From NCBI GenBank assembly GCA_031431875.1, contig JANPEF010000061.1:15764-79763 (forward strand): DNA of 64,000 nt, read 5' to 3'. The position numbers and the translations under genes were made by a program. Each line of letters begins with the position of its first letter. Within the stretch, counting starts at the first letter, position 1. Below, piece by piece: positions 6,068 to 30,986 of this stretch. The notes under the pieces are model-generated. The model was not told the origin of the DNA. It saw nothing but the letters and a program-made list of their open reading frames with translations, and ran no database searches. This DNA is from Candidatus Eiseniibacteriota bacterium. GTDB lineage: Bacteria; Eisenbacteria; RBG-16-71-46; DASYSL01.

Positions 6068-6134
6068 CGCCGCTGCAGGCCGCGCCATCGTGCAAAGCGC
6101 CTCGTCATCGGGGCCGTTCGGGGCCGCGCCGGGC

Positions 6135-6163
6135 TTGGTCCGGCGAGGCACCCGCGTTACAAT
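6135..6163 (+). promoter_or_regulatory. Sigma70-like promoter TTGGTC-N17-TACAAT upstream of the 6200 gene
   Basis: TTGGTC at 6135-6140 and TACAAT at 6158-6163 with a 17-nt spacer; GGAGG Shine-Dalgarno about 10 nt before the ATG at 6200. Confidence 0.4.
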
Positions 6164-6199
6164 TGCGGACATGGTTCTCCCCGCGGAGGTCGCTCGTCC

Positions 6200-7876
6200 A
6201 TGAAGTCGTTCAGCCGGATCCTCCCGCTCCACGTCCTGCTTGCCGGCGCCATCGCGCCCGCTGCCGGGGCGCAGTGCACGTATCCGCTGATCACCAACGG
6301 CGCGACGGTGACCGCTTCGAGCCAGGTGGCCTCGGTGCGCTTCGCGACGCCGATCACTTCCTTCGTCGCCCTCGGCCTGCGCTCCGACGCCGGCAGCGAT
6401 CATTCCCTCGCCCTGTACGGCGCGACGGGCGGCGCGCCTGCGTGCGGCAGCGGACTTCTCGCCACGTCGAACACGCCGGCAGGCGTCGAGGTGCTCGTCG
6501 GCGACTACCGCCCGGGACACAACCCGACCGGTCCGCGCTTTGCGACGGGAACACGGACCAGCGGCACGGGCGGCATGACGTTCGAACTGGAGACCACCGC
6601 GCGCATCCTGGTCGCCGGCACGCCGCCCGAGTCGTCGCTCGTGGCACCGCCGGTGCTCGACGTCTACCAGACGTTCCTCGAGGCCGGCAGTTCCTACACG
6701 TTCAACCTGGCGAGTGCGGGACCCGATCTCATGGTGCTCGTCTTCCGCAACCCGGGAGCGAATCCGTTCTGGGCCGGTCGCGGCGCCCCGGAGATGCTCG
6801 CCAGCGCGAACGGCCCCACGCTGTTCACTGCACCCGCGTCGGACGACTACGCCCTGGTCGTGGTCAACGATGACGGGGCCGCCGGCACGTACACGCTCTG
6901 GGTCGAGCTGTGCCAGGAGCCCGATACGCTGCTGTCGACTGTGGCGCGCCCGGTGACGTATCCGTATCGCGACAAGCTCGCCATCGAGGACCTCTACTGG
7001 CAAGGCGTCGGCGTTCGCCCCGACGCGGGCTCGGATTGGAACCTCGCGCTCTACGACACGGCGCGCGGGGCACCGGAACCCATCTGCTTCGAGGGCCTGG
7101 TGACGTCGTCTTCGCGCACGAGCGGCGTGGACTTCGTCGTCGGTGACCTGTCGAGCGGACCGCTCAAGCCGTTCTACGTGCGCGAACTGCGCGCCGGGGG
7201 AGACGGTGGCGCCACGGTCGAGTGGGACGCGGGTCCCGACGAGATCGCGGTCGGGGACACGCTGAGCCCGATCGTCCGCACGACCGGCCCCGCGGACGTG
7301 CTCACGGTCTGGGACGCGTACCTGAATCCCGGCACGACCTACACCGTGCTGTTCTCGCCCTCCGGGAGTGCGGAGCTGCGCTGGTTCCTCTTCGCCAACC
7401 CGGCGCAGGGCCCCGGCGGGGAGCGCTGGTTCGCGCGCGACGAGGCGATCCTCACGGCCACGGGGAACGCGCTGGTGACGCCGACCACCCAGGGCTGGCA
7501 CGGACTGGTCGTGGTCAACGAGAACGGCGCGGCCGGTTCGTATTCGCTCGCGATCGCCGGGCTGCCCTACGTCGGTGTCCCGGACGGGGGCGTGCTGCGC
7601 AACGCGCTGGGGGCGATCCAGCCCAACCCGATGCGCACCCGCGCGACGATCGGCTTCACGCTTGCCCGCACCGCTCGCGTCACGATCGAGATCGTCGACG
7701 TGGCGGGGCGCATCGTCGCGCTGGTCGACGGCGGAATGCAGGAGGGGGGACCGGGCGGGCTGGCCTGGGACGGGCGCGATGTGCAGGGCAGCCGGGCCGG
7801 CCCAGGCGTGTACTTCGCGCGCCTGGTGGTCGACGGTGCGGCGATCGGAGCGGCGCGACTCGTCCTCCTCCGCTAG
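6200..7876 (+). CDS. Secreted protein with three PPC-like (pre-peptidase C-terminal) repeat domains and a FlgD-Ig / T9SS-type C-terminal sorting domain; no catalytic domain recognised
   Basis: Signal peptide MKSFSRILPLHVLLAGAIAPAAGA; three repeats ending ...DDYALVVVNDDGAAGTYTLWV or ...VVVNENGAAGSYSL; C-terminus PNPMRTRATIGFTLARTARVTIEIVDVAGRIVALVDGG...GVYFARLVVDGAAIGAARLVLLR matches the FlgD-like/Por-secretion CTD pattern. Confidence 0.7.
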   Translation: MKSFSRILPLHVLLAGAIAPAAGAQCTYPLITNGATVTASSQVASVRFATPITSFVALGLRSDAGSDHSLALYGATGGAPACGSGLLATSNTPAGVEVLVGDYRPGHNPTGPRFATGTRTSGTGGMTFELETTARILVAGTPPESSLVAPPVLDVYQTFLEAGSSYTFNLASAGPDLMVLVFRNPGANPFWAGRGAPEMLASANGPTLFTAPASDDYALVVVNDDGAAGTYTLWVELCQEPDTLLSTVARPVTYPYRDKLAIEDLYWQGVGVRPDAGSDWNLALYDTARGAPEPICFEGLVTSSSRTSGVDFVVGDLSSGPLKPFYVRELRAGGDGGATVEWDAGPDEIAVGDTLSPIVRTTGPADVLTVWDAYLNPGTTYTVLFSPSGSAELRWFLFANPAQGPGGERWFARDEAILTATGNALVTPTTQGWHGLVVVNENGAAGSYSLAIAGLPYVGVPDGGVLRNALGAIQPNPMRTRATIGFTLARTARVTIEIVDVAGRIVALVDGGMQEGGPGGLAWDGRDVQGSRAGPGVYFARLVVDGAAIGAARLVLLR

Positions 7877-7879
7877 ACT
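7874..7879 (+). promoter_or_regulatory. -10-like TAGACT 6 nt upstream of the ATG at 7886 (leaderless-type architecture)
   Basis: TAGACT at 7874-7879, GCGCGG, then ATG 7886; the same TAnnnT-N6/7-start layout recurs at 10590, 13962 (minus strand), 43609 and 51223. Confidence 0.3.
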
Positions 7880-7885
7880 GCGCGG

Positions 7886-8305
7886 ATGGACACGTACCGC
7901 CTCTGGGTTGCGATCACGCCCCGCTTTCGTGACACCGACGCCATGGGCCACGTCAACAACGCGGTCTACCTCACGTATTTCGAGGTCGCGCGCACCGCCT
8001 ACTGGACCGCGCTGACCGGCGATCCCGATTACCAGCGCGTCCCGTTCATCCTCGCCCACACGACGCTCGACTTCCGCTCGCCGGCACTCGTGCGCGAGGC
8101 ACTCGAGGTCGGCATCCGCGTCGAGCGCGTGGGCACCAAGTCCTTCGCCTGCGCCTACCGGATCGAGGAGGCGACGTCGCGGCGCCTGGTCTGCGAGGGC
8201 CGCTCCGTGCAGGTCATCTTCGATTACGCGAAGAACGAGAGCTACCCGGTGCCCCCCGAGCTGCGGGCCAGCCTGCGCGCCTTCGAGGGCTGTCCGGACC
8301 TGTAG
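7886..8305 (+). CDS. Acyl-CoA thioesterase, 4HBT/YbgC-like hotdog fold
   Basis: 139 aa; the RFRDTDAMGHVNNAVYLTYFEVAR motif is typical of YbgC/4HBT thioesterases. Confidence 0.75.
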   Translation: MDTYRLWVAITPRFRDTDAMGHVNNAVYLTYFEVARTAYWTALTGDPDYQRVPFILAHTTLDFRSPALVREALEVGIRVERVGTKSFACAYRIEEATSRRLVCEGRSVQVIFDYAKNESYPVPPELRASLRAFEGCPDL

Positions 8306-8385
8306 ACGCGCCCGCGCCGATCCGGTAGCCTCCCGCGGTCCGGGCCCAGGGCCCGGCCGACCACCATCCAATGGAAGGAACGCCG

Positions 8386-8937
8386 ATGAGCTTCGTTTCC
8401 GAACCCACGATCCTGCACGCGTCGCGGCTGCGGCTCGTCGCCGGCGTGGCGGCGCTGTGCATCGTCACGACGGCGATCGGCTGCGCGTCGTCGGGCGGCT
8501 CCAAGACCCAGGCCGGCACGACCGCGACCGCAACCGCGAAAGCCGGCGGAGAGACCATGACCACGACTCCGGCGAAGGAACCCGATCACATCAAGGTGCA
8601 GCACATCCTGATCGGGGCGAAGGGCACGGTGCCCGGCAAGAGCATCACGCGCAGCCTCGATGAGGCGAAGATTCTCGCCTACCAGCTGGCCGATCGCGCG
8701 CGCAAGGGCGAGGACTTCGGCGCGCTGGTGAGCCAGTACACCGACGACGCGGCACCCGGCATCTACGGGATGTCCAATCGCGGCGTCGCGGCGGGTCAGG
8801 GTGAGTACGGTCGCGAGTCGATGGTACCAGCCTTCGGCAACGTCGGCTTCCCGCTGGCCCTCGGCGCGATCGGTGTCGCGGACTTCGACGCGTCGACGAG
8901 CCCTTACGGCTATCACGTCATCAAGCGCGTCGAATGA
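8386..8937 (+). CDS. Parvulin-type peptidyl-prolyl cis-trans isomerase (PpiC/SurA-like) lipoprotein, paralog 1
   Basis: ORF 8371..8937; GGAAGGAA is 7 nt before the second ATG at 8386; lipobox ...TTAIGC; rotamase core HILIG...GEDFGALVSQYTDD...GYHVIKRVE. Confidence 0.7.
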   Translation: MSFVSEPTILHASRLRLVAGVAALCIVTTAIGCASSGGSKTQAGTTATATAKAGGETMTTTPAKEPDHIKVQHILIGAKGTVPGKSITRSLDEAKILAYQLADRARKGEDFGALVSQYTDDAAPGIYGMSNRGVAAGQGEYGRESMVPAFGNVGFPLALGAIGVADFDASTSPYGYHVIKRVE

Positions 8938-9500
8938 CGCGGGAGGCTCTCGTGAATCCCATGATCCGTCGCGGGCTGCGGCTCGCCTCGCTCGCCCTCG
9001 TCCTCGCCGTGGTCGGCTGCTCGCCGAAGGCGGACGAGGCGGCGAAGACCGCCGTCGATGACGCCGCCGCCGTGGCCAAGGCGGCAGCGGACAGTGTCGC
9101 CAAGCTCGCCGCCAGCACGATGCCCGCCCCCCCGGCGACGGCGCCGGAGCACATCGAGGTGCAGCACGTGCTGATCGGCTTCGAGGGCAAGATCCCGGGC
9201 AAGCCGGTGACGCGTTCGCAGGCCGAGGCCGAGAAGCTCGCGGCCGAGCTGCTCGAGCGCGCCCGCAAGGGCGAGGACTTCGACCAGCTCGTCCAGAAGT
9301 ACACCGACGACCAGTGGCCGGGGATCTACGGCCTGGCCAACACCGGGATCACGCCAGCACAGGGCGAGTTCACGCGTGACGGCATGGTCAAGGGCTTCAG
9401 CGACATCGCCTTCAGCCTGTCGCCCGGCAACATCGACGTCGCCGTCTACGATCCCAAGACGAGCCCGTACGGCTGGCACATCATCAAGCGGTTGAAGTAG
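8934..9500 (+). CDS. Parvulin-type peptidyl-prolyl cis-trans isomerase lipoprotein, paralog 2 (tandem duplicate)
   Basis: Start overlaps the previous stop (ATGA); alternative starts GTG 8952 or ATG 8961 follow a GGGAGG; lipobox LAVVGCS; HVLIG...GEDFDQLVQKYTDD...GWHIIKRLK. Confidence 0.7.
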   Translation: MTREALVNPMIRRGLRLASLALVLAVVGCSPKADEAAKTAVDDAAAVAKAAADSVAKLAASTMPAPPATAPEHIEVQHVLIGFEGKIPGKPVTRSQAEAEKLAAELLERARKGEDFDQLVQKYTDDQWPGIYGLANTGITPAQGEFTRDGMVKGFSDIAFSLSPGNIDVAVYDPKTSPYGWHIIKRLK

Positions 9501-9511
9501 CGCGCGGTCGA

Positions 9512-9556
9512 TTCGATGATTGTGGCCCCCGGGAGATGCCTTCCGGGGGCCGTTTC
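9512..9556 (+). terminator. Intrinsic-terminator-like GC hairpin plus U-rich tail after PPIase paralog 2 (copy 1 of a duplicated hairpin)
   Basis: GGCCCCCGGG-AGATGCCTT-CCGGGGGCC followed by GTTTCATTGTTTC, 12 nt after the stop at 9500. Confidence 0.5.
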
Positions 9557-9635
9557 ATTGTTTCGCCGCCTGCGGGCCGGGGCGTAGACTCATCCCCCCG
9601 CATCCTCAGGGGTTTTCCGACTCGAGAGGTGAACC

Positions 9636-9851
9636 ATGCGCACCGCAGTCCATGCCTTGCTTGCCGCCGCGCTCTGCCTGTCGGCCTCGCCCGCACTGGT
9701 CAAAGCGGCCGACGGCACGTACGACCTGCGCTGGGACAGCTGCACCGGACCGATCGAACGCTGTCCCACGGTGGACGACCAGAACTCGCTGTACGCCTCC
9801 GTGATCGGGCTGGACCAACCGCATCTCGCCTACCAGGTTCAAGTGATCTAA
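9636..9851 (+). CDS. Small secreted Cys-containing protein (71 aa as annotated); ends at a TAA that is in frame with the following ORF
   Basis: ATG with GAGAGG Shine-Dalgarno; signal peptide MRTAVHALLAAALCLSASPALVKA; TAGACT -10-like hexamer at 9585-9590; lower GC and N/T/S/Q-rich composition, unlike the rest of the window. Confidence 0.45.
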   Translation: MRTAVHALLAAALCLSASPALVKAADGTYDLRWDSCTGPIERCPTVDDQNSLYASVIGLDQPHLAYQVQVI

Positions 9852-9917
9852 GGGAACGCGACGACCAACACCGTTCCCGACGCGTGGCGATTCGATGCGC
9901 AGGGGTGCCAGACCGGC

Positions 9918-10592
9918 GTGCCCCTCTTCACGATCGATCACTTCGCGCCTCCGGCGGTGGCGAAGGCGTGCCCGTCCCTCCAGGGCACCGCGCCGAGCAT
10001 CCAGATCAAGGACGTCAGCTTCGTTCCACCATCGATCCTCCTGCCGCAGACACTCCTGCGCATCACGCTGGCGAACGTGTACAACGGCAACCCACAGACC
10101 GGGGACCCCGCGAAGCGCTACTTCCTCGGGCGATTCCAGTTCGATCACGGGTTCTCGGTGATCGGTCCGACGACTCCGGGTGTCGATTGCAGCGGCTTCG
10201 AGGTTCCGCTCCGGTTCGACACGTACTGCACCAGCTACGTCGACACGCAGGGGATGGAATGGAGCTTCGGCCTCGGGGGCACTGGCACCGTGACCTCGAA
10301 GGGGGTGGAAACCTGCCTCCCGGTCCCGGCCGAGACCTCGACCAGCTCGTGCAGTAGTCCACCGACGGCCCCCGGGGGAGACACTCTCCCGGGGGCCGTT
10401 TCGTCATCGCGCGTTCGGGGGAAGATGACTGCGGCCACCAACCCGGGATGGTCTCAGTTACTCGCCCCCGGAACAGGCACTGCGACCATGAGGCGGACAT
10501 GGTCACACTCGCCTCTTCCAAGCAAGGTGACTGCGACCACCTGGGCTCACCCCCCCTCCGGCCCGATCCCGTGCCGCATCCCAATCTGGTAG
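9918..10592 (+). CDS. Hypothetical Cys/Thr/Ser-rich protein in the same frame as 9636..9851; possibly the 3' part of a disrupted gene or pseudogene
   Basis: Frame identical to 9636 (both 0 mod 3); the intervening translation GNATTNTVPDAWRFDAQGCQTG repeats the upstream motif DGTYDLRWDSCTG; atypical composition; the ORF reads through the second hairpin copy. Confidence 0.3.
   Translation: MPLFTIDHFAPPAVAKACPSLQGTAPSIQIKDVSFVPPSILLPQTLLRITLANVYNGNPQTGDPAKRYFLGRFQFDHGFSVIGPTTPGVDCSGFEVPLRFDTYCTSYVDTQGMEWSFGLGGTGTVTSKGVETCLPVPAETSTSSCSSPPTAPGGDTLPGAVSSSRVRGKMTAATNPGWSQLLAPGTGTATMRRTWSHSPLPSKVTATTWAHPPSGPIPCRIPIW
10372..10416 (+). repeat. Second copy of the GGCCCCCGGG...CCCGGGGGCC-GTTTC hairpin element
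   Basis: GGCCCCCGGGGGAGACACTCTCCCGGGGGCCGTTTCGTCATC; about 85% identical in the stem and 3' flank to the copy at 9512. Confidence 0.4.
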
Positions 10593-10601
10593 ATTCCCCT
10601 C

Positions 10602-11201
10602 GTGAAGGATTTCACGAGCCTCGCCCTCCTTTTCGTCGCCCTCCTCTTCCTCGTCGAGATCGCGCTCCTTGCGCGCTTCCTGCGCGCGCGCGGCCCTGCG
10701 CCCGGCCTTCGCTGGATCCTCGCTCCGCTCGTCGTCACGCTCGCATTCGCGCTGCCCGCCGCGTGGATTGCGCGCGCGGGCGGGCTCGCGCCCGGCCTGC
10801 CCGGAGCCGGCATGCCCTGGGAGGACGTGACCGATGCGACGCCGCGGGCGGAGTCCGCCGCCGCCGGTGAGCGCGCGTACCTCAACCGCTGCGCGCCGTG
10901 TCACCTGCCCGAGGGAAGTGGACTGCCGCCGTCGTATCCGCCACTCGTCGGCAGCGCCGTCGTCGCCGGTCCGGTCGACCTGCACGTCCGCTACGCGCTA
11001 TGGGGCAGTCGCGGCATCGCTCGACCACGCGCCGGTGCGGCGCAGATGCCGGGTTTCCATGGCGCGACCAGCGACGCGGAGCTCGCCGCGATCCTGACGT
11101 GGGAACGGAATGCGTGGGGGCATGACGCGGGGATCGTCCGGCCGTCGGACGTCGCGCGCGGGCGTGCCGCCGGCGCGGCCGAAGGGCTCGACCGCCCGTG
11201 A
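10602..11201 (+). CDS. Membrane-anchored monoheme c-type cytochrome (CxxCH = CAPCH)
   Basis: N-terminal transmembrane helices, CAPCH heme-binding motif, and a Met ligand region further downstream; GTG start 6 nt after a TAGATT hexamer; its stop overlaps the ctaA start (GTGA). Confidence 0.65.
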   Translation: MKDFTSLALLFVALLFLVEIALLARFLRARGPAPGLRWILAPLVVTLAFALPAAWIARAGGLAPGLPGAGMPWEDVTDATPRAESAAAGERAYLNRCAPCHLPEGSGLPPSYPPLVGSAVVAGPVDLHVRYALWGSRGIARPRAGAAQMPGFHGATSDAELAAILTWERNAWGHDAGIVRPSDVARGRAAGAAEGLDRP

Positions 11202-12070
11202 ACACGACGGCGCGCCTGGCGCGCGGCACCGTGCTCGCGACGTTCGCCCTGATCGTGCTGGGCGCGATTGTCCGCTCCACCGGGTCCGGCCTCGCCTGCC
11301 CCGACTGGCCGCTGTGCCACGGGCAGCTGATCCCGCCGTTCCAGCCGCAGGTGCTGCTCGAGTGGGGACACCGCGCGGTCGCGCTGATCGTCAGCCTGTT
11401 GACCGCGGCGCTCGCGGGGCGGATCCTGCTGGTTCCGGACGAGCGGCGGGCATTGGGAGGCCTCGTCGGCCTCGCGCTCGCGCTGCTCGCGATGCAGATC
11501 CTCCTCGGCGCGCTCACCGTGTGGAAGCTGCTGCACTTCTCGGTGGTGACGCTCCACCTGGGGAATGCACTGCTGTTCTTCGCGACGCTGATCGCGATCG
11601 CCGAGCGCGCGGGGCGCGGTGCCGAGGCGGCTTTGGACGCGTCGCCTGGCGACGACCGCAGGCTCTGGTGGATCGCCACACTCGCGACGCTCGCCCAGAT
11701 CCTCCTGGGCGGGCTGGTCAGCACCAATCATGCGGGGCTCGCCTGCCCCGATTTTCCGCTCTGCCACGGTGCGTGGTGGCCGGCGGGGGAAGGACCTCTC
11801 GTGCACCTGCAACTGGCGCATCGCTTCGGGGCGTACGCGCTCGCCGCCTTCCTCGCGTTCGCCTGGTGGCGGTCGCGCGGCGAGGCGAATCCGCACGTGC
11901 GAGCGGGTGCCACGGCGGTGCTCGGGCTGGTGCTCATCCAGATCGTGCTCGGCGCGTTCAACGTGCTGCTCGCGGTCCCCGTGTGGCTGACGGCGGCGCA
12001 TCTGGCCACCGCGACGGCGCTGTTCGCGCTGACCGTGCTGACCGCGCTGCGTGCCGGGCGTTCGTCATGA
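11198..12070 (+). CDS. ctaA: Heme A synthase CtaA (COX15 family)
   Basis: Paired CPDWPLCHG and CPDFPLCHG motifs, multiple transmembrane segments, 290 aa. Confidence 0.8.
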   Translation: MNTTARLARGTVLATFALIVLGAIVRSTGSGLACPDWPLCHGQLIPPFQPQVLLEWGHRAVALIVSLLTAALAGRILLVPDERRALGGLVGLALALLAMQILLGALTVWKLLHFSVVTLHLGNALLFFATLIAIAERAGRGAEAALDASPGDDRRLWWIATLATLAQILLGGLVSTNHAGLACPDFPLCHGAWWPAGEGPLVHLQLAHRFGAYALAAFLAFAWWRSRGEANPHVRAGATAVLGLVLIQIVLGAFNVLLAVPVWLTAAHLATATALFALTVLTALRAGRSS

Positions 12071-13362
12071 GCTTCGCCGTGGCGCGCACCGACCTGCGCA
12101 CGATCGCGCTGGCGTACCTCGAGCTGGCCAAGCCGCGGATCGTGCTGCTCGTGCTGCTGACCGGCGTGCCGGCGCTGCTCATGGCGGCGCGCGGGCTGCC
12201 CGAAGCGACGACCGTGATCGGCGCCATCCTCGGCACCGCGTTGGCAGCAGCCTCGGCGGCGGCGTTCAACCACGTGTTCGATCGCGACATCGATGCCCTG
12301 ATGGTGCGTACGAAGCTGCGCCCGCTGCCGACCGGCGTGCTCACGCCGACGCAGGCGACCGTGTTCGCGATCGGGCTCGGCATCGCCGCCTGGCTGGTGC
12401 TCGACCTCATGACGACCCGGCTGGCCGCGATCATCGGGCTGATCTCGATCTTCTATTACGCGGTGGTCTACACCGTGTGGCTCAAGCGCTCGACGCCGCA
12501 GAACATCGTGATCGGCGGCGCGGCGGGGGCGACCGCCCCGCTCATCGCGTGGGCCGCGGTGACCGGGCGCATCGACCTGCCTGCGGTCCTGCTCGCGGCG
12601 ATCGTCTTTTTCTGGACGCCGCCGCACTTCTGGGCGCTCGCGCTCTATCGCCGCGAGGACTACGCGCGGGCGAACATCCCGATGTTGCCGGTGACGCACG
12701 GGGAGGACGAGACGCGGCGGCAGATCCTGCTCTACACGCTGGGGCTGGTGCCGATCACGCTCGCCCCCGTTGGCATTGGCGCGGCCGGGCCGATCTACGG
12801 CGTACCGGCGCTGATGCTCGGCGCCCTGTTCGCGTGGTACGCGCTGCGGCTGTTCCAGACCAAGGCGACCGCGCGCGCGGTGAAGTTGTTCCGCTTCTCG
12901 ATCCTCTACCTGTTCGTGTTGTTCGTCGCGCTGGGCGTCGATGCCGCGGTCGTGGGCGGGCGCAATCGCGCCGCGGCAGAGCGCACGCGAGCGGCGGCGG
13001 CGGCGGCGGTCGCATCGGTCGAGAACCCGGTTGCGGTGCGGGTGACGGCCGGTGCGACCGGGGCGCTGGCGCTCTCGGTGACCGCGCCGCTCGAGGAGGT
13101 CGCGGTGCGTCGGGGCGGGGAGCAGGAGCGCGTGCTGCGGGTCATCAACGGTGGCTCCGACACGTTGCGGGTCTCCGTGAAGCGGAGGGTCCTTCCGGAG
13201 GTGGCGGCGGCCTTCGTGCGCGATGCGGACGGCGGCGCTCCGCGAGTGATGATCGCGCCGGGGGCAACCGTCGACCTGCCGGTGCGCTTCACGATCGATG
13301 CGGCCCTGCCGCTCGACGTGCCAGTCCTGACCGTGATCTACTCGCTCGATGCCTCGCGCTGA
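12067..13362 (+). CDS. ctaB: Protoheme IX farnesyltransferase CtaB/CyoE with a ~130-aa C-terminal extension
   Basis: ATGA overlap with ctaA; UbiA-family motifs NHVFDRDIDALMVRTKLRPLPTG and YYAVVYTVWLKR; the extra C-terminal region (VGGRNRAAAERTRAAAAAAVASVENP...VIYSLDASR) is not part of the canonical ~300-aa CtaB. Confidence 0.8.
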   Translation: MSFAVARTDLRTIALAYLELAKPRIVLLVLLTGVPALLMAARGLPEATTVIGAILGTALAAASAAAFNHVFDRDIDALMVRTKLRPLPTGVLTPTQATVFAIGLGIAAWLVLDLMTTRLAAIIGLISIFYYAVVYTVWLKRSTPQNIVIGGAAGATAPLIAWAAVTGRIDLPAVLLAAIVFFWTPPHFWALALYRREDYARANIPMLPVTHGEDETRRQILLYTLGLVPITLAPVGIGAAGPIYGVPALMLGALFAWYALRLFQTKATARAVKLFRFSILYLFVLFVALGVDAAVVGGRNRAAAERTRAAAAAAVASVENPVAVRVTAGATGALALSVTAPLEEVAVRRGGEQERVLRVINGGSDTLRVSVKRRVLPEVAAAFVRDADGGAPRVMIAPGATVDLPVRFTIDAALPLDVPVLTVIYSLDASR

Positions 13363-13955
13363 GGCGCTTGCAGCGTCCCCTGCACCCACTTGCGCAGCGC
13401 CACGATTCCGTCGTTGTCCTTGGCCGAGGTCGCGATCACGTCGATCTCCTCGCGCCAGGGCAGGAGCTTGCGCAGCTCGGCCAGCTTGCGCGCGGGGGCG
13501 CTGCGGTTCACGCGGTCGCACTTGGTGAACGCGAGCGCGAACGGCACGTCGTCCTCCAGCAGCCACGACAGCATCTCGAGGTCCGAGTCCTGCCACGGCA
13601 CGCTCACGTCGACCAGCTGGAACACCGCGGCGCGGCGCGACGGATCGCCCAGCAGGTCGCGGGCGGCGCGGGTGAACGTGCGGCGTTCCTTCTCGGGTCC
13701 GGCGGCGTAGCCGTAGCCGGGCAGATCGATCAGGTAGAAAGGCGGCGTCTTGTCCGACTCGAGCTCGAAGTAGACGAGCTGGCGCGTGCGGCCCGGCGTC
13801 TTGCTCGTGCGCGCGATCGCCTGGTTGGCGAAGCGATTGACGAGCGACGACTTGCCCACGTTCGAGCGCCCCGTGAAGGCGATTCCCGGACGCTCGTTCG
13901 GGCATGCGGCGGGGTCGAGAAACGAGCCGAGGAACTTCGTGCGGAGGATGCGCAT
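13338..13955 (-). CDS. engB: Ribosome-biogenesis GTPase EngB (YihA/YsxC)
   Basis: [11 protein letters not shown]...[12 protein letters not shown] (G1), DLPGYG (G3), TKCD (G4); 205 aa; TACCTT hexamer 7 nt upstream of the ATG on the coding strand. Confidence 0.8.
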
Positions 13956-14010
13956 GAAGCCCAAGGTAGCATGCCTTGACACCCGGCGACGGCCCGACGA
14001 ACATGCGCCC

Positions 14011-14523
14011 ATGAACGAGCCGCGCCCCGCCGATGCCGCGCCCGCGCCCCGGGTCGGCGTGATCATGGGCAGCCAGAGTGATCTCGAGACGATGGCGCCC
14101 GCCGTCGAGCTCCTGACCGCGCTTGCCGTGCCGCACGAAGTGCGCATCGTCTCGGCGCACCGCACCCCCGACTGGATGTTCGAGTACGCCTCGACGGCCG
14201 AGGCGCGCGGGCTCGCCGTGATCATCGCCGCCGCAGGCGGCGCGGCCCACCTGCCCGGGATGACCGCGGCGAAGACGATCCTGCCGGTGCTCGGCGTGCC
14301 CGTCGCCGCGACCGCGCTCGGCGGCGTCGACGCGTTCCTCTCCATCGTCCAGATGCCGAAGGGCGTGCCAGTCGGTACGCTTGCCATCGGCGCGCCCGGG
14401 GCGGCAAACGCGGCGCTGCTCGCGGCGCGCATCGTCGCCCTCGGCGATCCGGCGCTGCGCGAAAGACTGCGCGCATGGACCGCGGCTCGACGCGACGAGG
14501 TCCTCGGCGACTCGACGCCGTGA
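14011..14523 (+). CDS. purE: N5-carboxyaminoimidazole ribonucleotide mutase PurE
   Basis: [15 protein letters not shown]...HRTPD...[11 protein letters not shown], classic PurE motifs. Confidence 0.8.
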
Positions 14524-15722: not shown

Positions 15723-15834
15723 GCCCTTCCGGGTTTACGATTTACAGGCCAGCCCGGACGTGCTATTCCCTCGGTGATCCGTTCCCCGCATCCCCAATCG
15801 TGGCGGGCGCTGGCGCCCGCGAGGAGCCCGATTC

Positions 15835-25265: not shown

Positions 25266-27959
25266 ATGGGAATGACGCATTGCGTTCGTCGTCATCAATC
25301 GTACGTCGCAGTCGCGATCGCCGCGGGTTCGCTCGCGTGGGCCGCGCTCGGCGGGGCGGTCGCAGCGGTGGGCGCACCGGCTGCGGCGCCCGTCGACTCG
25401 GCCGGGACGGTGGGCAGCCGACTGGGCCGCGCTGTCGTGCCGCTGTCGCAGAAGGTCGAACTCCGCCTCGACCCCGCGTCCCCGGACTACAGCGGCTCGA
25501 CCACGATCTCGATCGAGGCAGCCGCGCCGTTCCGTTCGCTGCGCGTGCACGCGAGGGAGCTGTCGGTCGAGACGATCCTGCTCGCGGGCGGCCTCGTGCA
25601 CGTCGCGCCGAAGTGGGCCAGCGAGACGGACGGGACGATCCGTATCACCTTCAGCGAGCCCGTGCCGGCGGGGATCTACCTGCTCACGCTGCGCTTCCGC
25701 AACGACTTCAACACGCAGGCCACGAGCCTGTACCGCCTCAAGGCCGGCGACGACTGGTACTGCTTCACGCAGTTCGAGGCGACCGACGCGCGCGAGGCCT
25801 TCCCGTGCTTCGACGAGCCCGAGTTCAAGATCCCGTGGGACCTCGAGCTGACCATTCCGGGCGGGCACAGCGCGGTCGCGAACACGCCGATCGTCTCGAG
25901 CGCCCCGGCCGGCGACGGTTGGACGAAACACGTGTTCAAGCGCTCGAAGCCCATGCCGACCTACATCCTGGCGATCGCCACCGGGCCGCTCGAGATGACG
26001 CCGATCGAGGGCATGTCGATTCCGGGCAACGTTGTGACGGTGAAGGGGCAGGCGACGCTCACCGCCGAGGCGAGGCGCGTCGCGCCGCCGATCCTCGCCG
26101 CGCTCGAGGCCTACTTCGGGCGCCCGTATCCCTACGAGAAGCTCGACCTGCTCGCGGTGCCCGAGTTCTGGCCCGGCGCCATGGAGAACGCGGGCGCGAT
26201 CACGTTCGCCGATGGCGTGCTGCTGCTCGATGACAAGACGGCGACCGTCTCGATGCGGCGCTCGCTGGCGTCGATCACGGCGCACGAGCTCGCGCACATG
26301 TGGTTCGGTGACCTGGTGACGATGAAGTGGTGGGACGACCTGTGGCTCAACGAGTCGTTCGCCTCGTGGCTGGGCGAGAAGGTGACCCACGGCGTGTACC
26401 CGGAGTTCGGGATCGAGGACCGCCTCGTGCTCGACGCGGACGAAGCGATGCTGGTCGACGGTCGACTGAGCACGCGCGCGGTCCGCCAGCCCGTCAAGAG
26501 CCTCGACAATCTCCTGCAGTCGGCCGATGCCCTTGCATACCAAAAGGGACAGACGGTCCTCGGCATGTTCGAGCAGTGGCTGGGCCCCGACGTGTTCCGG
26601 GCCGGCGTGCGCGACTACATCTCTCGCCATGCGTGGGGGAACGCCGTGGCGGACGACCTGTGGTCGGCGCTGTCGCGCTCGGCGAAGAAGGACGTGGGTG
26701 GCTCGATGGGCACGTTCCTCAACCAGCCCGGGCTCGCGCTCGTCGGGGCCGAGCCGCTGCCGGGCGGCCGGGTGCGCCTCACGCAGTCGCGCTTCCTGCC
26801 GGCCGGAACGGTCGCGCCGACACCCCAGCGCTGGTCGATCCCGGTCACGCTCAAGTATGGCGGGGCGAGCGGGGCGGCGAAGACGAAGAGCGTGCTGCTC
26901 TCCGCGCCGACGCAGGTCGTCACGCTCGAGCCGGGGGTGAAGTGGGTGTACCCGAACGGGCGCGCCTGGGGCTACTACCGCTGGAAGATGCCCGACGCCT
27001 CGATCACCGCGCTGGTCGAGCGGGCCAGCACCTCCCTCGAGTTGCGCGAGCGCATGGAGCTGACCACCAATGCAGCGGCCTTGCTCGACGCCGGTGCGAT
27101 GCCTGGCGACACCTACCTGCGCCTGCTCGAGAAGCTGGCCGCAGACGAGGAGCCCGCCGTGGTCGGCGCGGTGCTCGACGGGATGGAGAAGGTGAAGCAG
27201 ACGTTCATCACGCCCGAGGTCGAGCCCGCCTATGCCGCGTACGTCCAGCGCGCGCTCGCGCCGGCGGTGGATCGCTTCGGCCTGACGAGGCAAGCGGGCG
27301 AGCAGGAGTCGGTGTCGTTCATCCGCGGGCGCCTGCTCGGCATGCTCGCCGACGAGGGTCGCGACCCCCGCGCGCGCGCCTACGCCGACTCGCTGGCGCA
27401 GGCGTACCTGGCCGACGTGACGAGCGTCGATCCGTCGCTTGCGTTCACGTCGCTGCAGGTCGCCGCCATGGACGGGGATCCCGCGCTGTGGGAGACCTAT
27501 CGCACGCGCTTCGAGTCGGCGCCGAACCCCGGCGAGCGGCGCAACTTCCTTGCGGCGCTGGGCTCGTTCCGCTCCCCGCCGCTGCGCCAGAAGTCACTCG
27601 ACTACGCGCTCGCCGGCCCGCTCCGGCCGCAGGAGGTGCTGGCCGTCCCGCGCGCCATGGGCGGCGCCTCCGAGGAGGGCCGGGAAGCGCAGTTCCAGTG
27701 GGCGATGCAGAACTACGATGCGATCATGAAGCGCGTGCCACCCATGTTCGCAGTGTTCATGCCGTTCGTCGGATCCGGCTGTTCCGGCGACCGGCTCACG
27801 GCGACGCAGTCGTTCTTCGCCGATCCGGCGCACGCGCCTCCGGGCACCGAGAAGGAACTGGCAAAGGTGACCGAAACGGTCGAGGACTGCATGAAGCTGC
27901 GGGCGCGCGAAGGTCCGCGCGTGCGCGAGTTCCTGCAGCGAGGTCCGGTTGCGAACTAG
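25266..27959 (+). CDS. pepN: M1-family aminopeptidase N
   Basis: GAMEN exopeptidase motif and HELAHMWFGD-(18)-E zinc site (WLNESFASW); signal peptide; ~897 aa. Confidence 0.85.
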   Translation: MGMTHCVRRHQSYVAVAIAAGSLAWAALGGAVAAVGAPAAAPVDSAGTVGSRLGRAVVPLSQKVELRLDPASPDYSGSTTISIEAAAPFRSLRVHARELSVETILLAGGLVHVAPKWASETDGTIRITFSEPVPAGIYLLTLRFRNDFNTQATSLYRLKAGDDWYCFTQFEATDAREAFPCFDEPEFKIPWDLELTIPGGHSAVANTPIVSSAPAGDGWTKHVFKRSKPMPTYILAIATGPLEMTPIEGMSIPGNVVTVKGQATLTAEARRVAPPILAALEAYFGRPYPYEKLDLLAVPEFWPGAMENAGAITFADGVLLLDDKTATVSMRRSLASITAHELAHMWFGDLVTMKWWDDLWLNESFASWLGEKVTHGVYPEFGIEDRLVLDADEAMLVDGRLSTRAVRQPVKSLDNLLQSADALAYQKGQTVLGMFEQWLGPDVFRAGVRDYISRHAWGNAVADDLWSALSRSAKKDVGGSMGTFLNQPGLALVGAEPLPGGRVRLTQSRFLPAGTVAPTPQRWSIPVTLKYGGASGAAKTKSVLLSAPTQVVTLEPGVKWVYPNGRAWGYYRWKMPDASITALVERASTSLELRERMELTTNAAALLDAGAMPGDTYLRLLEKLAADEEPAVVGAVLDGMEKVKQTFITPEVEPAYAAYVQRALAPAVDRFGLTRQAGEQESVSFIRGRLLGMLADEGRDPRARAYADSLAQAYLADVTSVDPSLAFTSLQVAAMDGDPALWETYRTRFESAPNPGERRNFLAALGSFRSPPLRQKSLDYALAGPLRPQEVLAVPRAMGGASEEGREAQFQWAMQNYDAIMKRVPPMFAVFMPFVGSGCSGDRLTATQSFFADPAHAPPGTEKELAKVTETVEDCMKLRAREGPRVREFLQRGPVAN

Positions 27960-28723
27960 CGGTAGCCAGCCTTGATGCGGCCCCACGTCGCCGGAACGGC
28001 CGGCGTGGGTGTCTCGTAGGTGATGGTGAGCGCGGGGCGGAGTGTGGGATCCGTCGATTCGCGGGAGTCGAACTTCTTGACCGTCTGCGCTATCGCCTCG
28101 TTGCCGCGCAGCAGCCAGCCGTGGTTGCTCGCAGGCTCGTCGAGCCACGCCTGCACGTCGGCGACCAGCCCGGGATTCGACGTCCACACGTAGGTTCCCG
28201 TTGCGTCGACCGCCAGCGTCGCGCTCGCCGCCGCCGCGAAGTCGCCCCCGGCCGCGGCCCAGAGGGATCCCGGGAAGAAGGTGTGCTTCCACGTTGCGTC
28301 GCCGGCCTGTGCCGGCGCGCCGCTGCCACCGGCGATCCCGGCGTCCGAGGCGCCCTCACCCCAGGCGGCGCTCGCGCGGTGCAACCCAACGTTCGCGGCT
28401 CCGGCACTCGTCTGGCTCATGATCAACTCAAGATCGACCGACAGGATCGTCGCGCCGTCGGGAATCGCCGCGGCCACGTTGAACCACAGCAACCCGCGGC
28501 GGATGCTGTTCGTGGCCTGGTTGTTGCGGCCGGCGAAAAAGCTGGTGCCCGCGCCGTTGCTGAGGGATCCAGTAGCGCTCTCGTAGAGCGTATTGTCTTT
28601 CGCCGCGCCGATGACCAGCGTCGTGCCGGCCCGCGCACCCGGAGCGGGAACGAGCAGGGCGACGAGGACGGCGACCAGCCGGGCCGCGGATCGGCCGCCG
28701 CGATGGGCGTGGAACGGGTTCAC
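27956..28723 (-). CDS. Secreted hypothetical protein (beta-rich; possible DNRLRE/choice-of-anchor-like domain, uncertain)
   Basis: GTG start with GAGGAG Shine-Dalgarno 6 nt upstream; signal peptide VNPFHAHRGGRSAARLVAVLVALLVPAPGARA; no catalytic motif recognised. Confidence 0.55.
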   Translation of the reverse strand: MNPFHAHRGGRSAARLVAVLVALLVPAPGARAGTTLVIGAAKDNTLYESATGSLSNGAGTSFFAGRNNQATNSIRRGLLWFNVAAAIPDGATILSVDLELIMSQTSAGAANVGLHRASAAWGEGASDAGIAGGSGAPAQAGDATWKHTFFPGSLWAAAGGDFAAAASATLAVDATGTYVWTSNPGLVADVQAWLDEPASNHGWLLRGNEAIAQTVKKFDSRESTDPTLRPALTITYETPTPAVPATWGRIKAGYR

Positions 28724-28889
28724 GAAATTCTCCTCGAATGGGGTCGCCGGCGACCGATCGGCAGGGGAAGGGCCGACGACGAGTATACAACGCCCCCCCT
28801 TGCGCCCGCACCTGTGGGCGGGGAGAATGCGGCGTCCGGCCGTAGGGCTCGCCGTCCGATCATCCACCCTCCAGCTGTTCTGGGGACCC

Positions 28890-30986
28890 ATGCGCGAAGA
28901 AGACCTGCTCCGCCTCGTCTGGATCACCGATCCGCAGATCGCACCCGCGGGGGATCGCATCGTGTTCGTGCGCGTCATCGTCGACGAGGCGAACGATCGC
29001 TACGCGACCTCCCTGTGGATCGCTGATGCCGCCCTTGGCCGGCCGCGGCCGCTCACCTTCGGGCCCGGCGATGCACAGCCCCGCTGGTCGCCCGACGGCA
29101 CGCGCCTCGCGTTCGTGCGCTCGCCCGAGCCCGGCCAGCCCGCACAGCTGTGGGTGATGCCCATGCGCGGCGGCGGCGAGGCCGTGCGGTTGACCGACCT
29201 GGTGAAGGGCGCGGGATCCCCGGCATGGTCGCCCGACGGCATGCAGATCGCGTTCACCAGCGGCACGAACCCCGAGCTCGACACGCCCGACGCGGAGGCG
29301 AAGAAGCCGAAGAACGCCCCCGGGCGGATCGTCGCGCGGCCCATGGTGAAGCTCGACAACGTGGGTGCGCTCGATCCCGAACACCAGGACCACGTGTGGG
29401 TGGTGGCACTCGCCGTCGACGGCGCCGCCGCTGGAGCGCCGCGCATGCTGACCTGCGGCCGCTTCAACGAGGACGCGCCCGAGTGGTCGCCCGACGGCGC
29501 GGGCGTCTGCTTCGTGAGCGATCGCCGGCTCGCACCGTGGTATGGCCTCGATGATGCGGACGTGTGGTCCGTCGCGGCCGACCGCACGGTCCCGACCGAG
29601 AGCGAGGTCACGCTCGTTGCAGACGTGGCGGGCACCATCGGCCGCTTCACGCTGGGCGCTGACGGTCGCGTGCTCGCGGTGGGGATGCTGACGCAGGAAC
29701 CGCCTCGCTCCTACGACCAGCCCGACGTGTTCGTGTGCGCGCCGCCGTTCCCGCAGCCCACGCCGCACGGGCTCACCCAGGCATACGAGTTCGAGGCGGG
29801 GGACTCGTCGATCTCCTCCGACCAGCACCCGCCCCGGGCGGGCGGCAGCGTTCCGCTGGCGTTCATCGAGGGTGGGGCCGCCGTGCTCACGGTGGTGGGG
29901 CGGCACGGCGCGTGCATCCTGGCGCGCATCGGCGCCGACGGTTCGGTGACCGAGCTCACGCCCGCCGATCGCGAGATCGTCTCGGGCACCGTGTCGGCCG
30001 ACGGGAAGTGCGCCGCGGTGATCGTCGGCTCACCGTCCCGGCCCGGGGTGCTTTGCGCCTGCGACGTGGCGAGCGGCGCGCTGACGCCGTTGTACGACCC
30101 GAACGAGGCACTGTTCACCGAATCGAAGCTGGGGAAGGTCGAGGAGGTCTGGTACCCGTCGTTCGACGGGCAGAAGGTCCAGGGCTGGGTGGTGACGCCG
30201 CCCGGGTTCGATCCCGCGCAGAAGTATCCGCTCGTGCTGCAGATCCACGGCGGTCCGCACGTGGCGTACGGCGTCGGCTTCTTCCACGAATTCCAGGTGC
30301 TCGCCGAGGCCGGCTATGTCGTCCTCTACGTGAACCCGCGTGGCTCGACGACGTACGGGCAGGAGTTCGGCAACGTGATCCAGTTCGAGTATCCAGGCGA
30401 CGACTGGAAGGACCTGATGGCCGGCGTCGACCTGCTGGTCGGCCGCGGCTTCATCGACGCGACGCGGATGGGCGTCACCGGCGGATCGGGCGGGGGGCTC
30501 CTGACCAACTGGACGGTGGTGAACACCGATCGCTTCGCCTGCGCGATCACGCAGCGCTGCGTCGCCGACTGGACGTCGTTCTGGTACGGGGCCGATTTCG
30601 CGCAGTTGACGAACTTCTGGTTCCGCGGCGCGCCCCACGAGGATCCGGCCGACTATGCGCGCCGCTCACCGCTGACGCACGCGGCCCGGGCGAAGACGCC
30701 GCTGCTCGTCGTCCACAGCGAGGACGACTGGCGGACGCCGATCGTTCAGGGGGAGGGGATGTTTCGCGCCATGCTTGCCCAGCGCGTGCCCACGGCGATG
30801 ATCCGCTTCCCGGGCGAGGGCCACGAGCTGTCGCGGAGCGGCGCGCCGTCGCGGCGGGTGCAGAACCAGCGCGTGATGCGCCGCTGGTTCGATCGCTGGC
30901 TCCAGGGCAAGGACGCGCCCGAGTTCGACGATCCGCTGGCCGCGGCACCGGCGCCGCTTCCGGCAGGGGCCCGCGCGAAGGGCTAG
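28890..30986 (+). CDS. S9-family serine peptidase (acylaminoacyl-peptidase-like), second copy, cytoplasmic or unprocessed N-terminus
   Basis: MREEDLLRLVWITDPQIAPAG...; propeller WSPDG repeats; catalytic GGSGGG (Ser), D and H in the C-terminal alpha/beta hydrolase. Confidence 0.8.
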   Translation: MREEDLLRLVWITDPQIAPAGDRIVFVRVIVDEANDRYATSLWIADAALGRPRPLTFGPGDAQPRWSPDGTRLAFVRSPEPGQPAQLWVMPMRGGGEAVRLTDLVKGAGSPAWSPDGMQIAFTSGTNPELDTPDAEAKKPKNAPGRIVARPMVKLDNVGALDPEHQDHVWVVALAVDGAAAGAPRMLTCGRFNEDAPEWSPDGAGVCFVSDRRLAPWYGLDDADVWSVAADRTVPTESEVTLVADVAGTIGRFTLGADGRVLAVGMLTQEPPRSYDQPDVFVCAPPFPQPTPHGLTQAYEFEAGDSSISSDQHPPRAGGSVPLAFIEGGAAVLTVVGRHGACILARIGADGSVTELTPADREIVSGTVSADGKCAAVIVGSPSRPGVLCACDVASGALTPLYDPNEALFTESKLGKVEEVWYPSFDGQKVQGWVVTPPGFDPAQKYPLVLQIHGGPHVAYGVGFFHEFQVLAEAGYVVLYVNPRGSTTYGQEFGNVIQFEYPGDDWKDLMAGVDLLVGRGFIDATRMGVTGGSGGGLLTNWTVVNTDRFACAITQRCVADWTSFWYGADFAQLTNFWFRGAPHEDPADYARRSPLTHAARAKTPLLVVHSEDDWRTPIVQGEGMFRAMLAQRVPTAMIRFPGEGHELSRSGAPSRRVQNQRVMRRWFDRWLQGKDAPEFDDPLAAAPAPLPAGARAKG

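Follow-up and report, generated by a model that had tools for sequence, protein, structure and literature searches.

A probable single-gene insertion, now decayed, with two terminator-type hairpins in an uncultured Candidatus Eisenbacteria bacterium

In a 64-kb stretch of DNA from an uncultured soil bacterium of Candidatus Eisenbacteria (hereafter the window), positions 9501-10586 very probably represent DNA gained by this lineage, which holds a copy of a single gene disabled by a nonsense codon and truncated at its 3' end, together with two GC-rich hairpins of terminator type. The overall picture is one of plain gene gain followed by decay and leaves current understanding unchallenged.

The locus and its neighbours

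The features of the locus and of the two genes that anchor it are listed below. Hairpin energies are predicted RNA energies and their z-scores refer to 200 shuffles.

8934..9500, + strand: PPIC-type peptidyl-prolyl isomerase, paralogue 2 (PPIase 2), upstream anchor; Pfam Rotamase_3, 1e-15
9524..9556, + strand: hairpin 1 with its GTTTC tail, 24 nt past the PPIase 2 stop; -29.3 kcal/mol, z -5.1
9565..9585, + strand: GCCGCCTGCGGGCCGGGGCGT, lying between hairpin 1 and the pseudogene; probably what is left of the loop and 3' arm of the ancestral PPIase 2 terminator
9624..9631, + strand: Shine-Dalgarno-like GAGAGGTG, 4 nt upstream of the ATG at 9636, read directly from the sequence
9636..9848, + strand: 5' part of the pseudogene, called as a 71-aa ORF; codes for the signal peptide and for the predicted cohesin-like domain up to about its third beta-strand
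9849..9851, + strand: in-frame TAA nonsense codon, aligned with L71 of the homologue P0002
9852..10343, + strand: 3' part of the pseudogene, family profile positions about 70-231 (hmmsearch, one domain, 260 bits)
10344..10364, + strand: junction, where the C-terminal tag WGxIKxQYRx, the native stop and a 28-37-nt spacer would be expected
10365..10402, + strand: hairpin 2 with its GTTTC tail at the truncated 3' end of the pseudogene; -37.6 kcal/mol, z -5.3
10403..10586, + strand: novel non-coding tail, absent from relatives; spurious C-terminus of the 224-aa ORF in frame 0
10587..10601, + strand: 5' flank of the cytochrome c gene, where collinearity with relatives restarts
10602..11201, + strand: membrane-anchored c-type cytochrome, downstream anchor; Pfam Cytochrome_CBB3; followed by CtaA and CtaB

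Upstream collinearity with relatives ends exactly at the TAG stop codon of PPIase 2 (blastn against the relative L011 breaks at 9500). The start of this gene differs in the public call, and an exact look-up of the protein as delimited here gave no match. Six nucleotides upstream of the GTG start codon of the cytochrome c gene lies the conserved TGGTAGATT (TGnTAGATT), which resembles an extended -10 element; this putative promoter element was left untouched by the insert. Tandem Repeats Finder returned nothing for the locus itself, and an Rfam scan of 9300-10800 (E <= 1) yielded two chance-level hairpin matches on the minus strand, far under the gathering scores.

An earlier note on this DNA had described the composition of the locus as atypical. 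The GC content is indeed lower than in the flanks (0.63-0.67 over 9500-10600 vs 0.70-0.75), but this modest shift stems from which amino acids a secreted beta-sandwich protein contains, not from foreign codon usage. The pseudogene has a GC3 of 0.86, resembling host genes, and a total GC of 0.66, with values of 0.68 and 0.69 for the PPIase genes and 0.67 for another secreted-protein gene in the window. A foreign origin deduced from composition was therefore rejected on account of the host-like GC3.

One former gene in two called ORFs

The called ORFs of 71 aa and 224 aa are two pieces of one former secreted-protein gene, because homologues, the family profile and the structure model all span the TAA. 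As already proposed in the earlier note, ORFs 9636..9851 and 9918..10592 share one frame and are divided by the TAA at 9849-9851, and the idea that both once formed a single secreted protein is supported by these three lines of evidence. A homology search such as had been advised there retrieved 18 full-length homologues (P0002-P0019, 228-276 aa, E 3e-59 to 3e-31), all unbroken across the TAA position, and single tblastn alignments spanning 9690-10334 cross this codon. In frame 0, the family profile was matched by a single domain over positions 5-231 of 241 with 260 bits (hmmsearch). The third-position GC signal of the same frame is unbroken from about 9625 to about 10300 and passes through the TAA, while the GTG at 9918, the annotated start of the 224-aa ORF, falls within the domain. 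The AlphaFold model of P0002 (pLDDT 86, pTM 0.80) predicts one cohesin-like beta-sandwich, in which the TAA-aligned residue L71 sits inside beta-strand 62-73. Judged by this model, the lesion precludes a folded product, with the stop placed in a beta-strand and the C-terminal WG..K..YR gone. The motif W-x-D-x-C-x-G, previously taken for a repeat before and after the stop, is present on both sides, but it represents two separately conserved motifs of one family; the motif pair alone is thus no proof of fusion.

The family comprises secreted proteins of about 245 aa, known so far almost exclusively from Eisenbacteria, in each of which a signal peptide precedes one cohesin-like beta-sandwich, with a short WGxIKxQYR tag at the C-terminus. 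Family genes in other genomes usually form tandem arrays, each gene with a GC hairpin and T-rich tail downstream; the window contains a single copy. No close donor copy of the insert was found, the best homologue being about 51-55% identical. Neither Pfam nor NCBIfam assigned the joined protein or its homologues to a family, and within Pfam the joined protein had no match at E <= 1 and P0002 and P0016 none at E <= 0.1. On the predicted structure, the family has a cohesin-type beta-sandwich fold. The likeness to Cohesin modules (PF00963; type I/II/III, cellulosomal and non-cellulosomal) lies in the predicted fold alone, with sequence identities of 5-12%; unlike these modules, the family is larger (about 200 residues), carries conserved cysteines and has its own C-terminal tag. 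A literature search on Eisenbacteria returned community and genome surveys only and nothing about the family or the tag. A short C-terminal WGxIKxxYR tag also occurs on unrelated secreted proteins of the same genome.

The truncated 3' end

Intact homologues feature the tag, a stop codon and then 28-37 nt up to the terminator. Here, hairpin 2 starts 21 nt past the last family-homologous codon, and as the junction 10344..10364 holds these 21 nt only in place of the tag, the stop and the usual spacer, about 45 nt of the family layout are missing. The last 10 profile positions, which correspond to the near-invariant C-terminal tag, were not found in any of the six frames. A frame 2 peptide ending in DLDQLVQ before a TAG at 10355-10357, loosely similar to the ..xQYRx end of the family, was considered and rejected; it is without profile support and would still leave the hairpin spacing about 25 nt short.

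The segment 10344-10592 is non-coding read-through, hairpin 2 included, and the annotated 224-aa ORF is an artefact because the copy lacks the C-terminal tag and a stop of its own. The earlier placement of hairpin 2 inside ORF 9918..10592 is accordingly correct for the called ORF, but that portion is non-coding, the family homology of the pseudogene stopping at 10343. The tail 10403..10586 shows GC contents of 0.52/0.76/0.72 at codon positions 1/2/3, unlike coding DNA, contains an 18-nt direct repeat, AAGRTGACTGCGRCCACC, at 10422-10439 and 10524-10541, and had no Rfam match.

Reality and age of the lesions

Three assemblies, each from its own sequencing run (L001-L003), have the identical TAA and hairpin 2. 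They yield one and the same sequence over 9462-10676, and since they depart from the window at 9519, 10631 and 11439, a single assembly has not simply been duplicated. The four TAA-bearing assemblies stem from samples of one study, and the allele is thus reproducible, though not thereby fixed. Among the explanations weighed in the earlier note, a nonsense-mutation pseudogene is borne out by the identical TAA in three other assemblies, which at the same time speaks against a sequencing error as its cause. The genome is metagenome-assembled, multi-copy paralogous families invite mis-assembly, and L005, from another assembled genome, likewise has a frameshifted family copy (6901-7650); nevertheless, the recurrence of one sequence in three independent runs, and the presence of just one family copy in the window that could mislead an assembler, make it barely conceivable that faulty sequencing or assembly produced the TAA or the truncated 3' end. 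It is also highly improbable that the locus is functional as it stands, be it as two small genes or as one protein made by reading through the TAA. Four assemblies have gene calls for both ORFs, the codon bias is intact on either side of the TAA and few conserved positions deviate. Against this, the stop lies within a beta-strand of a single compact domain, the downstream ORF has no signal peptide and its intradomain GTG no Shine-Dalgarno sequence, and the near-invariant C-terminal tag is lost. The two genuine genes considered earlier are therefore not supported, the homologues being continuous across the stop. A stop at the TAA column was absent from every homologue, and TAA ends 3 of the 31 confident ORFs in the window. 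A reassignment of TAA was rejected because it is an ordinary terminator codon here, and programmed read-through was discarded for the same use of the codon and the lack of conservation of the stop.

In the 41 conserved columns only 3-4 deviations occur, which is within the range of intact homologues, and no frameshift was found within the 708 nt of the pseudogene. Since the coding part is thus almost without further decay, the inactivation would be recent; alternatively, the copy may already have been truncated on arrival. The locus resembles decayed bacterial pseudogenes (unitary or processed by decay, with nonsense codons and 3' truncation, often mis-annotated as two ORFs) in that intact homologues span the lesion, the stop interrupts a folded domain, a spurious ORF takes in intergenic DNA and the copy is lineage-specific. 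It differs from them in a coding part that is otherwise almost undecayed.

The hairpins as probable terminators

An exact search of the window for GGCCCCCGG-N4-20-CCGGGGGCC found two sites, 9524-9551 and 10367-10397, both on the + strand and both followed by GTTTC, vs 0 sites expected (100 shuffles). This confirms the earlier statement that the pair occurs nowhere else in the 64 kb, and no other perfect hairpin of the window with a stem >= 9 bp has this sequence. The two copies are about 85% identical, as noted earlier, over about 36 nt from GGCCCCC to GTTTC (local score 39 vs a shuffle maximum of 24), with the loop start GAGA and the tail in common, and their flanks show no homology to each other. 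The perfect stems of 9 and 12 bp can be extended to 13 and 17 pairs. Their tails read GUUUCAUUGUUUC and GUUUCGUCAUCG, of which a simple U-tract terminator scan accepted copy 1 only; the corresponding tails of the relatives read CGUUCG. Short U-tracts are usual for terminators in high-GC genomes.

The hairpin is not peculiar to this locus. An identical stem and tail is carried by at least 120 unrelated metagenome contigs, many of them high in GC, and 60 of 92 metagenome hairpin sites lie <=120 nt downstream of an ORF (>= 80 aa), vs 36% of random positions. None of 80 hairpin-bearing metagenome loci encodes the family or the neighbouring genes. Because the same stem and tail recurs in metagenome contigs, mostly just downstream of ORFs, both hairpins are best read as intrinsic terminators, although efficient intrinsic termination is not assured given the short T run (GTTTC) after each. 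Hairpin 1 is probably the intrinsic terminator of PPIase 2; this earlier assignment gains plausibility from its position 24 nt past the stop, its stable stem and a similar hairpin in relatives. As in Rho-independent terminators of high-GC bacteria, a perfect G+C-rich stem of 9-17 bp with a loop of 3-10 nt lies on the coding strand just past a gene end and is followed by T residues. Unlike typical representatives, the T run comprises three bases, and the adjacent pair is about 85% identical, beyond functional need. This extra likeness may be left to gene conversion, co-transfer or chance.

Origin of the insert

In three relatives (L011, L013 and L014), the gene order is thioesterase-PPI1-PPI2, a spacer of 91-115 nt and cytc-ctaA, with no such gene; the spacer carries one hairpin at the same place, with a CCCCGG/CCGGGG core and a GTTCG tail. 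Amino-acid identities give the tree ((window, L011 93.6%), L013 81%), L014 72%, with L011 as the sister lineage. L011 is collinear with the window on either side of the locus, with a nucleotide identity of about 90%, and 76 nt in L011 are replaced by 1086 nt here. As the three relatives, including the sister lineage, have PPIase 2 and the cytochrome c gene adjacent without the gene, in agreement with the synteny check proposed in the earlier note, the locus appears to be a lineage-specific insertion of ~1 kb gained after the split from the sister lineage, the direction of gain being deduced by parsimony over three relatives only. The two hairpins had been suspected to mark the ends of an ~860-bp insertion. 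The insertion is real, but the novel DNA extends from 9501 to 10586 and overruns hairpin 2 by about 190 nt.

Comparison with the relatives' spacers further suggests that 9565..9585 is a remnant of the ancestral terminator. Its 11-mer GGCCGGGGCGT is identical in L011 and L013, and the remnant reaches a local score of 30 against L013 with a shuffle maximum of 28. Deleting 9532-9564 rebuilds a hairpin with a 25/27 match to L013 (score 42 vs a shuffle maximum of 38 in 40 shuffles).

The polarity might be reversed if the gene were ancestral at this site and had been lost in the relatives, e.g., by recombination between the direct hairpin repeats. Direct repeats favour deletion, and exactly one similar hairpin is found in the relatives' spacer. 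However, with L011 as the sister of the window and L013 and L014 as successive outgroups, two or three losses would be required vs one gain. Moreover, a deletion between the repeats would leave 205 nt after hairpin 2, where the relatives have about 45 non-homologous nt, and their terminator is conserved among them and differs from both window hairpins. The ancestral presence of the gene is thus clearly unlikely, and deletion between repeats in the relatives was rejected because the tree makes it the less parsimonious course and the flanks show no homology.

Similarly, the hairpins could be sites of recombination or transposition (integron attC-like, IS200/IS605- or REP-like), with a promoter-gene-hairpin cassette integrated at the chromosomal terminator hairpin and one hybrid hairpin left on each side. 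They are in direct orientation, 843-846 nt apart and about 85% identical, they bracket a gene in DNA that is absent from relatives, and hairpin 1 can be read as a hybrid to which the ancestral terminator contributed the 5' arm and a hairpin-2-like element the rest (loop, 3' arm and tail). Yet the novel DNA continues for about 190 nt past hairpin 2 and the ancestral remnant lies inside the supposed cassette, for which reasons a simple Campbell-type integration at the hairpin was rejected. No third hairpin copy exists in the 64 kb, which were searched for dispersal of the REP, MITE or IS200-IS605 type within the window only, and none of 11 loci from other Eisenbacteria genomes has the hairpin, L001-L003 being re-assemblies of this locus. 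Neither an integrase or transposase (8 kb upstream, 5 kb downstream) nor an integron integrase or attI (8 kb upstream, 5.4 kb downstream) was found; L011 stays collinear for 8 kb on the upstream and 5.4 kb on the downstream side, and each of its genes has a Pfam domain of the housekeeping kind. The flanks are without attC-type RYYYAAC/GTTRRRY cores, and integron attC sites were rejected in particular, as the tails GTTTCAT and GTTTCGT have pyrimidines for the required purines and the 5' flanks no inverse core. Furthermore, the flanks share no homology, no target site is duplicated apart from the hairpin, the stem is widespread as an ordinary terminator, and the family is encoded at 0 of 80 hairpin-bearing metagenome loci. 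Integron cassettes and IS200/IS605 or REP hairpin elements do share the arrangement of one gene between similar direct hairpins that is absent from relatives. They differ from it by core-site motifs, a nearby recombinase or other copies, and by the lack of novel DNA past the hairpin, and attC or IS-end structures are imperfect, unlike the short perfect GC stems seen here. Such a cassette is, all in all, unlikely. It is very unlikely that the look-alike hairpins are the footprint of a hairpin-mediated insertion by template switching or GC-stem recombination, by which Eisenbacteria would move single secreted-protein genes from their tandem arrays into terminators.

Proposed course of events and significance

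According to the favoured reading of lineage-specific gain and decay, about 1.1 kb would have been gained in the short spacer between PPIase 2 and cytochrome c-ctaA-ctaB, carrying a single family copy that was presumably killed by the TAA and by loss of the last ~10 codons, the stop and the spacer. With tag, native stop and spacer missing, frame 0 runs through hairpin 2 into intergenic DNA and yields the spurious 224-aa ORF. Hairpin 1 would end the PPIase transcript, and hairpin 2 may end any transcription of the pseudogene and insulate the cytochrome c promoter.

For annotation, this means that the public 'hypothetical proteins' of 71 aa and 224 aa are pieces of one dead gene, and that intergenic DNA, including a putative terminator, makes up about a third of the translated 224-aa ORF. 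If the hairpin-mediated insertion were true, terminators of unrelated operons would serve as landing pads for single-gene cassettes of Eisenbacteria. The locus offers a well-polarised example of gene gain and subsequent quick decay in an uncultured phylum. As a by-product, an uncharacterised secreted family with a predicted cohesin-like fold is defined, and the WGxIKxxYR tag may hold more interest than the pseudogene locus itself.

An interrupted gene of a secreted protein family

The locus comprises the following features.
8934-9500: PPIase 2, upstream of the insert
9524-9556, + strand: hairpin 1 with GTTTC tail
9636-10343: pseudogene, reading across the TAA at 9849-9851
10365-10402, + strand: hairpin 2 with GTTTC tail
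10602-11201: cytochrome c gene, with CtaA and CtaB next

Judged from sequence comparison, ORFs 9636..9851 and 9918..10592, which share a frame and are divided by the TAA, are one gene and not two. A search with the joined pieces, as proposed in the earlier note, recovered 18 homologues of 228-276 aa covering both (E 3e-59 to 3e-31), besides the annotated 224-aa ORF itself. In every homologue the TAA column is occupied by an amino acid; the conserved motifs LSWDxCTGP and PDAWRFDxxGCQ flank it on opposite sides. Likewise, homologues match 9690-10334 as single segments in tblastn, and a profile from 17 of them finds one domain in frame 0 (positions 5-231 of 241, 260 bits), in which third-position GC keeps to 0.79-0.95 between 9625 and about 10300, unbroken over the TAA. 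These results bear out the proposal of a once single secreted protein, and the continuity of the homologues across the TAA together with the single profile domain speaks against two genes.

A sequencing or assembly error, also considered before, is contradicted by Logan assemblies of three separate runs (SRR20217185, SRR20217188, SRR20217190), in each of which the 71-aa and 224-aa ORFs recur. Their identity to the window is 99.8-99.9%, with differences at 9519, 10631 and 11439, and the TAA and hairpin 2 are identical in all three. As TAA closes three of the 31 confident window ORFs, it is an ordinary stop codon in this genome. Thus, with the stop reproduced in three assemblies and a sense residue in all homologues, the suggested nonsense-mutation pseudogene is upheld. 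The window copy deviates at 3-4 of 41 conserved family columns (intact members at 0-13) and no frameshift was found in its 708 nt, so that inactivation appears to be recent.

The gene is also damaged at its 3' end. Nearly all homologues finish with C..TPA..TTWGxIKxQYR(N)-stop; homology of the window copy ends at the Thr codon 10341-10343, and the last ten profile positions were found in none of its frames. In intact homologues, the 30-nt tag and the stop are followed by 28-37 nt to a GC hairpin. Since hairpin 2 begins only 21 nt past the last homologous codon, about 45 nt are missing. In frame 0 of 10344-10592, GC at codon positions 1/2/3 is 0.52/0.76/0.72, unlike any window gene; therefore, in the annotated 224-aa protein, which has an internal GTG start, the last 83 codons are terminator and intergenic DNA read as coding sequence. 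The position of hairpin 2 within a reading frame, remarked on earlier, is accordingly mechanical, an annotation artefact.

The atypical composition ascribed to the locus is real as a drop in GC (0.63-0.67, nearby 0.70-0.75) but reflects amino-acid content: GC3 of the window copy is host-like at 0.86, and total GC is lowered at codon positions 1 and 2. Total GC is similarly low for a further secreted protein encoded in the window and for the PPIase genes.

A probable insertion absent from the closest relatives

The organism is assigned to Candidatus Eisenbacteria (Eiseniibacteriota). Relatives were found by a cytochrome c search, followed by the contigs of the closest ones, L011 (GCA_031413115.1), L013 and L014. 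All three show the order thioesterase, PPIase 1, PPIase 2, a 91-115-nt spacer, cytochrome c and CtaA, with CtaB next in L011 and L014 (the L013 contig stops after CtaA). The family gene is absent from the spacer in 3/3, so that the synteny comparison advised earlier finds PPIase 2 and cytochrome c adjacent without the insert.

Amino-acid identities over five proteins
Window-L011: 93.6%
Window-L013: 81.4%
L011-L013: 81.2%
Window, L011 or L013 to L014: about 71%

According to these identities, the window and L011 are sisters, with L013 and L014 as successive outgroups. Window segments 1601-9500 and 10587-16000 match L011 at about 90% identity in blastn; between them lie 1086 nt in the window versus 76 nt in L011, in agreement with an insertion. 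By parsimony, a single gain is preferred to two or three losses. A further contig without the insert, L012 (SRR20217196), belongs to the same run series.

Upstream, two tandem PPIC-type rotamase paralogues (8371-8937 and 8934-9500) overlap by 4 nt at start and stop, and each has a lipoprotein-like N-terminal signal (..GC). This pair is kept upstream of cytochrome c-CtaA-CtaB in 4/4 genomes. Downstream, TG(G/C)TAGA(T/G)T is conserved 6-7 nt 5' of the cytochrome c GTG start in 4/4 genomes, in the relatives 3' of their spacer hairpin. It resembles an extended -10 promoter element, whose position would imply a leaderless or near-leaderless mRNA. The roughly 1-kb insert ends exactly at this element.

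Positions of the TG(G/C)TAGA(T/G)T element
Window: 10587-10604
L011: 7986-8003
L013: 2533-2550
L014: about 3121-3139

The hairpins as probable terminators

The pattern GGCCCCCGG-N4-20-CCGGGGGCC has two exact matches in the window, 9524-9551 and 10367-10397, both on the + strand and directly followed by GTTTC (0 expected from 100 shuffles). Predicted folding energies are -29.3 kcal/mol for hairpin 1 and -37.6 kcal/mol for hairpin 2 (z about -5). The 64-kb window has 17 perfect hairpins with stems of 9 bp or longer, and among them this sequence is unique to the two, as the earlier note had observed. Their similarity (local alignment score 39, shuffle maximum 24) spans only about 36 nt, from GGCCCCC through GTTTC, and the flanks compared on both sides show no relatedness.

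The spacer of the relatives contains one hairpin, CCCCGGCC-loop-GGCCGGGG-CGTTCG (-27 to -39 kcal/mol), which is the PPIase 2 terminator. At least 120 metagenome contigs, with 52-76% GC, contain the window hairpin sequence including its tail. Among the matches listed, loops are diverse without a common sequence, some sites are bidirectional, and 60 of 92 sites have an ORF of 80 aa or more ending no further than 120 nt upstream (random positions, 36%); in 80 of these contigs the family was sought and encoded in none. This wide occurrence 3' of ORFs identifies a generic high-GC terminator type and not a special element. Both window hairpins stand where terminators are expected, and termination is most likely their role, which we infer although the run of T is short.

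In the unrelated metagenome contig L020 (Ga0316630_10171136, minus strand, about 770-860 and 1370-1460), the window-type stem occurs twice, the copies having identical loops and lying about 600 nt from each other, each 20 nt past an ORF and with flank homology of at least 100 nt; this exemplifies duplication of a gene end together with its terminator.

Origin of the likeness between the hairpins

Between hairpin 1 and the gene, 9575-9585 exactly repeats an 11-mer from the 3' arm of the relatives' hairpin, GGCCGGGGCGT. Excising 9532-9564 restores a hairpin agreeing with L013 at 25/27 positions (score 42; maximum of 40 shuffles 38), and an alternative parse against L011 takes out 62 nt instead. 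This suggests that a patch of about 33 nt, resembling hairpin 2 and placed within the ancestral terminator, makes up the loop, 3' arm and tail of hairpin 1, the details being uncertain; it could stem from short-patch conversion or template switching between two GC-rich stems.

Four histories were weighed. In the favoured one, hairpin 2 arrived with the insert, and hairpin 1 came to resemble it through later conversion. Next comes an insert from a tandem array that also brought its upstream neighbour's similar terminator; in other Eisenbacteria, the family genes are arranged as two or three tandem copies (L004, L005, L006, L008), away from PPIase or cytochrome c genes, most copies having a strong GC hairpin with T-rich tail at the 3' side and adjacent copies carrying similar hairpins. 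No donor was identified among the homologues found, as the best is only about 51-55% identical. Convergence on a common terminator sequence ranks third. Least favoured are recombination sites of a cassette: the paired hairpins would then mark the insert ends, as proposed earlier, but the ancestral-terminator remnant sits inside the supposed cassette and about 190 nt of novel DNA (10403-10586) extend past hairpin 2. Moreover, no further hairpin copies were found in the 64-kb window or in 11 loci from other Eisenbacteria genomes, attC-type core motifs are absent, and the collinear flanks hold no recombinase.

The novel non-coding tail contains an 18-nt direct repeat, AAGRTGACTGCGRCCACC, at 10422-10439 and 10524-10541 (102 nt apart); a third, incomplete copy, ACTGCGACCA, sits between them (10480-10489), and a degenerate half-hairpin, GCCCCCGGAA, at 10464-10473. 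They may be what is left of a decayed duplication of a hairpin-2 unit of about 100 nt, or putative protein-binding sites.

The protein family and its C-terminal tag

In the L005 array, the third copy (6901-7650) is frameshifted: its frame ends in TTWGTPWVALPCPR and a stop, and the proper tail KTWGQIKSQYRQ with its stop is encoded out of frame within 45 nt after 7650. Either decay is common in the family or tandem paralogues were mis-assembled.

Nearly all cohesin-like family members (L004-L009) end in [ST]TWGx[IV]KxxYR and a stop, which also close two unrelated signal-peptide proteins of the window, one without a domain match and the other with a DNRLRE domain (NF033679, 7e-17).

Tag in unrelated window proteins
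33006-33035, +: ORF ending 33035, probable start MKRLSFLS near 32325
27956-27985, -: end of ORF 27956..28978

No Pfam or NCBIfam model matches the tag, and no description surfaced in literature mentioning the phylum. The tail is a low-confidence helix in the model of a family protein. The tag looks like a putative C-terminal sorting or anchoring signal of Eisenbacteria.

Conclusion

We read the locus as a lineage-specific insertion, about 1.1 kb long, with a terminator-type hairpin on each side, the hairpins being, we infer, most likely ordinary terminators. Within it lies one gene copy from a secreted, cohesin-like Eisenbacteria protein family, and this copy appears to have been inactivated recently.
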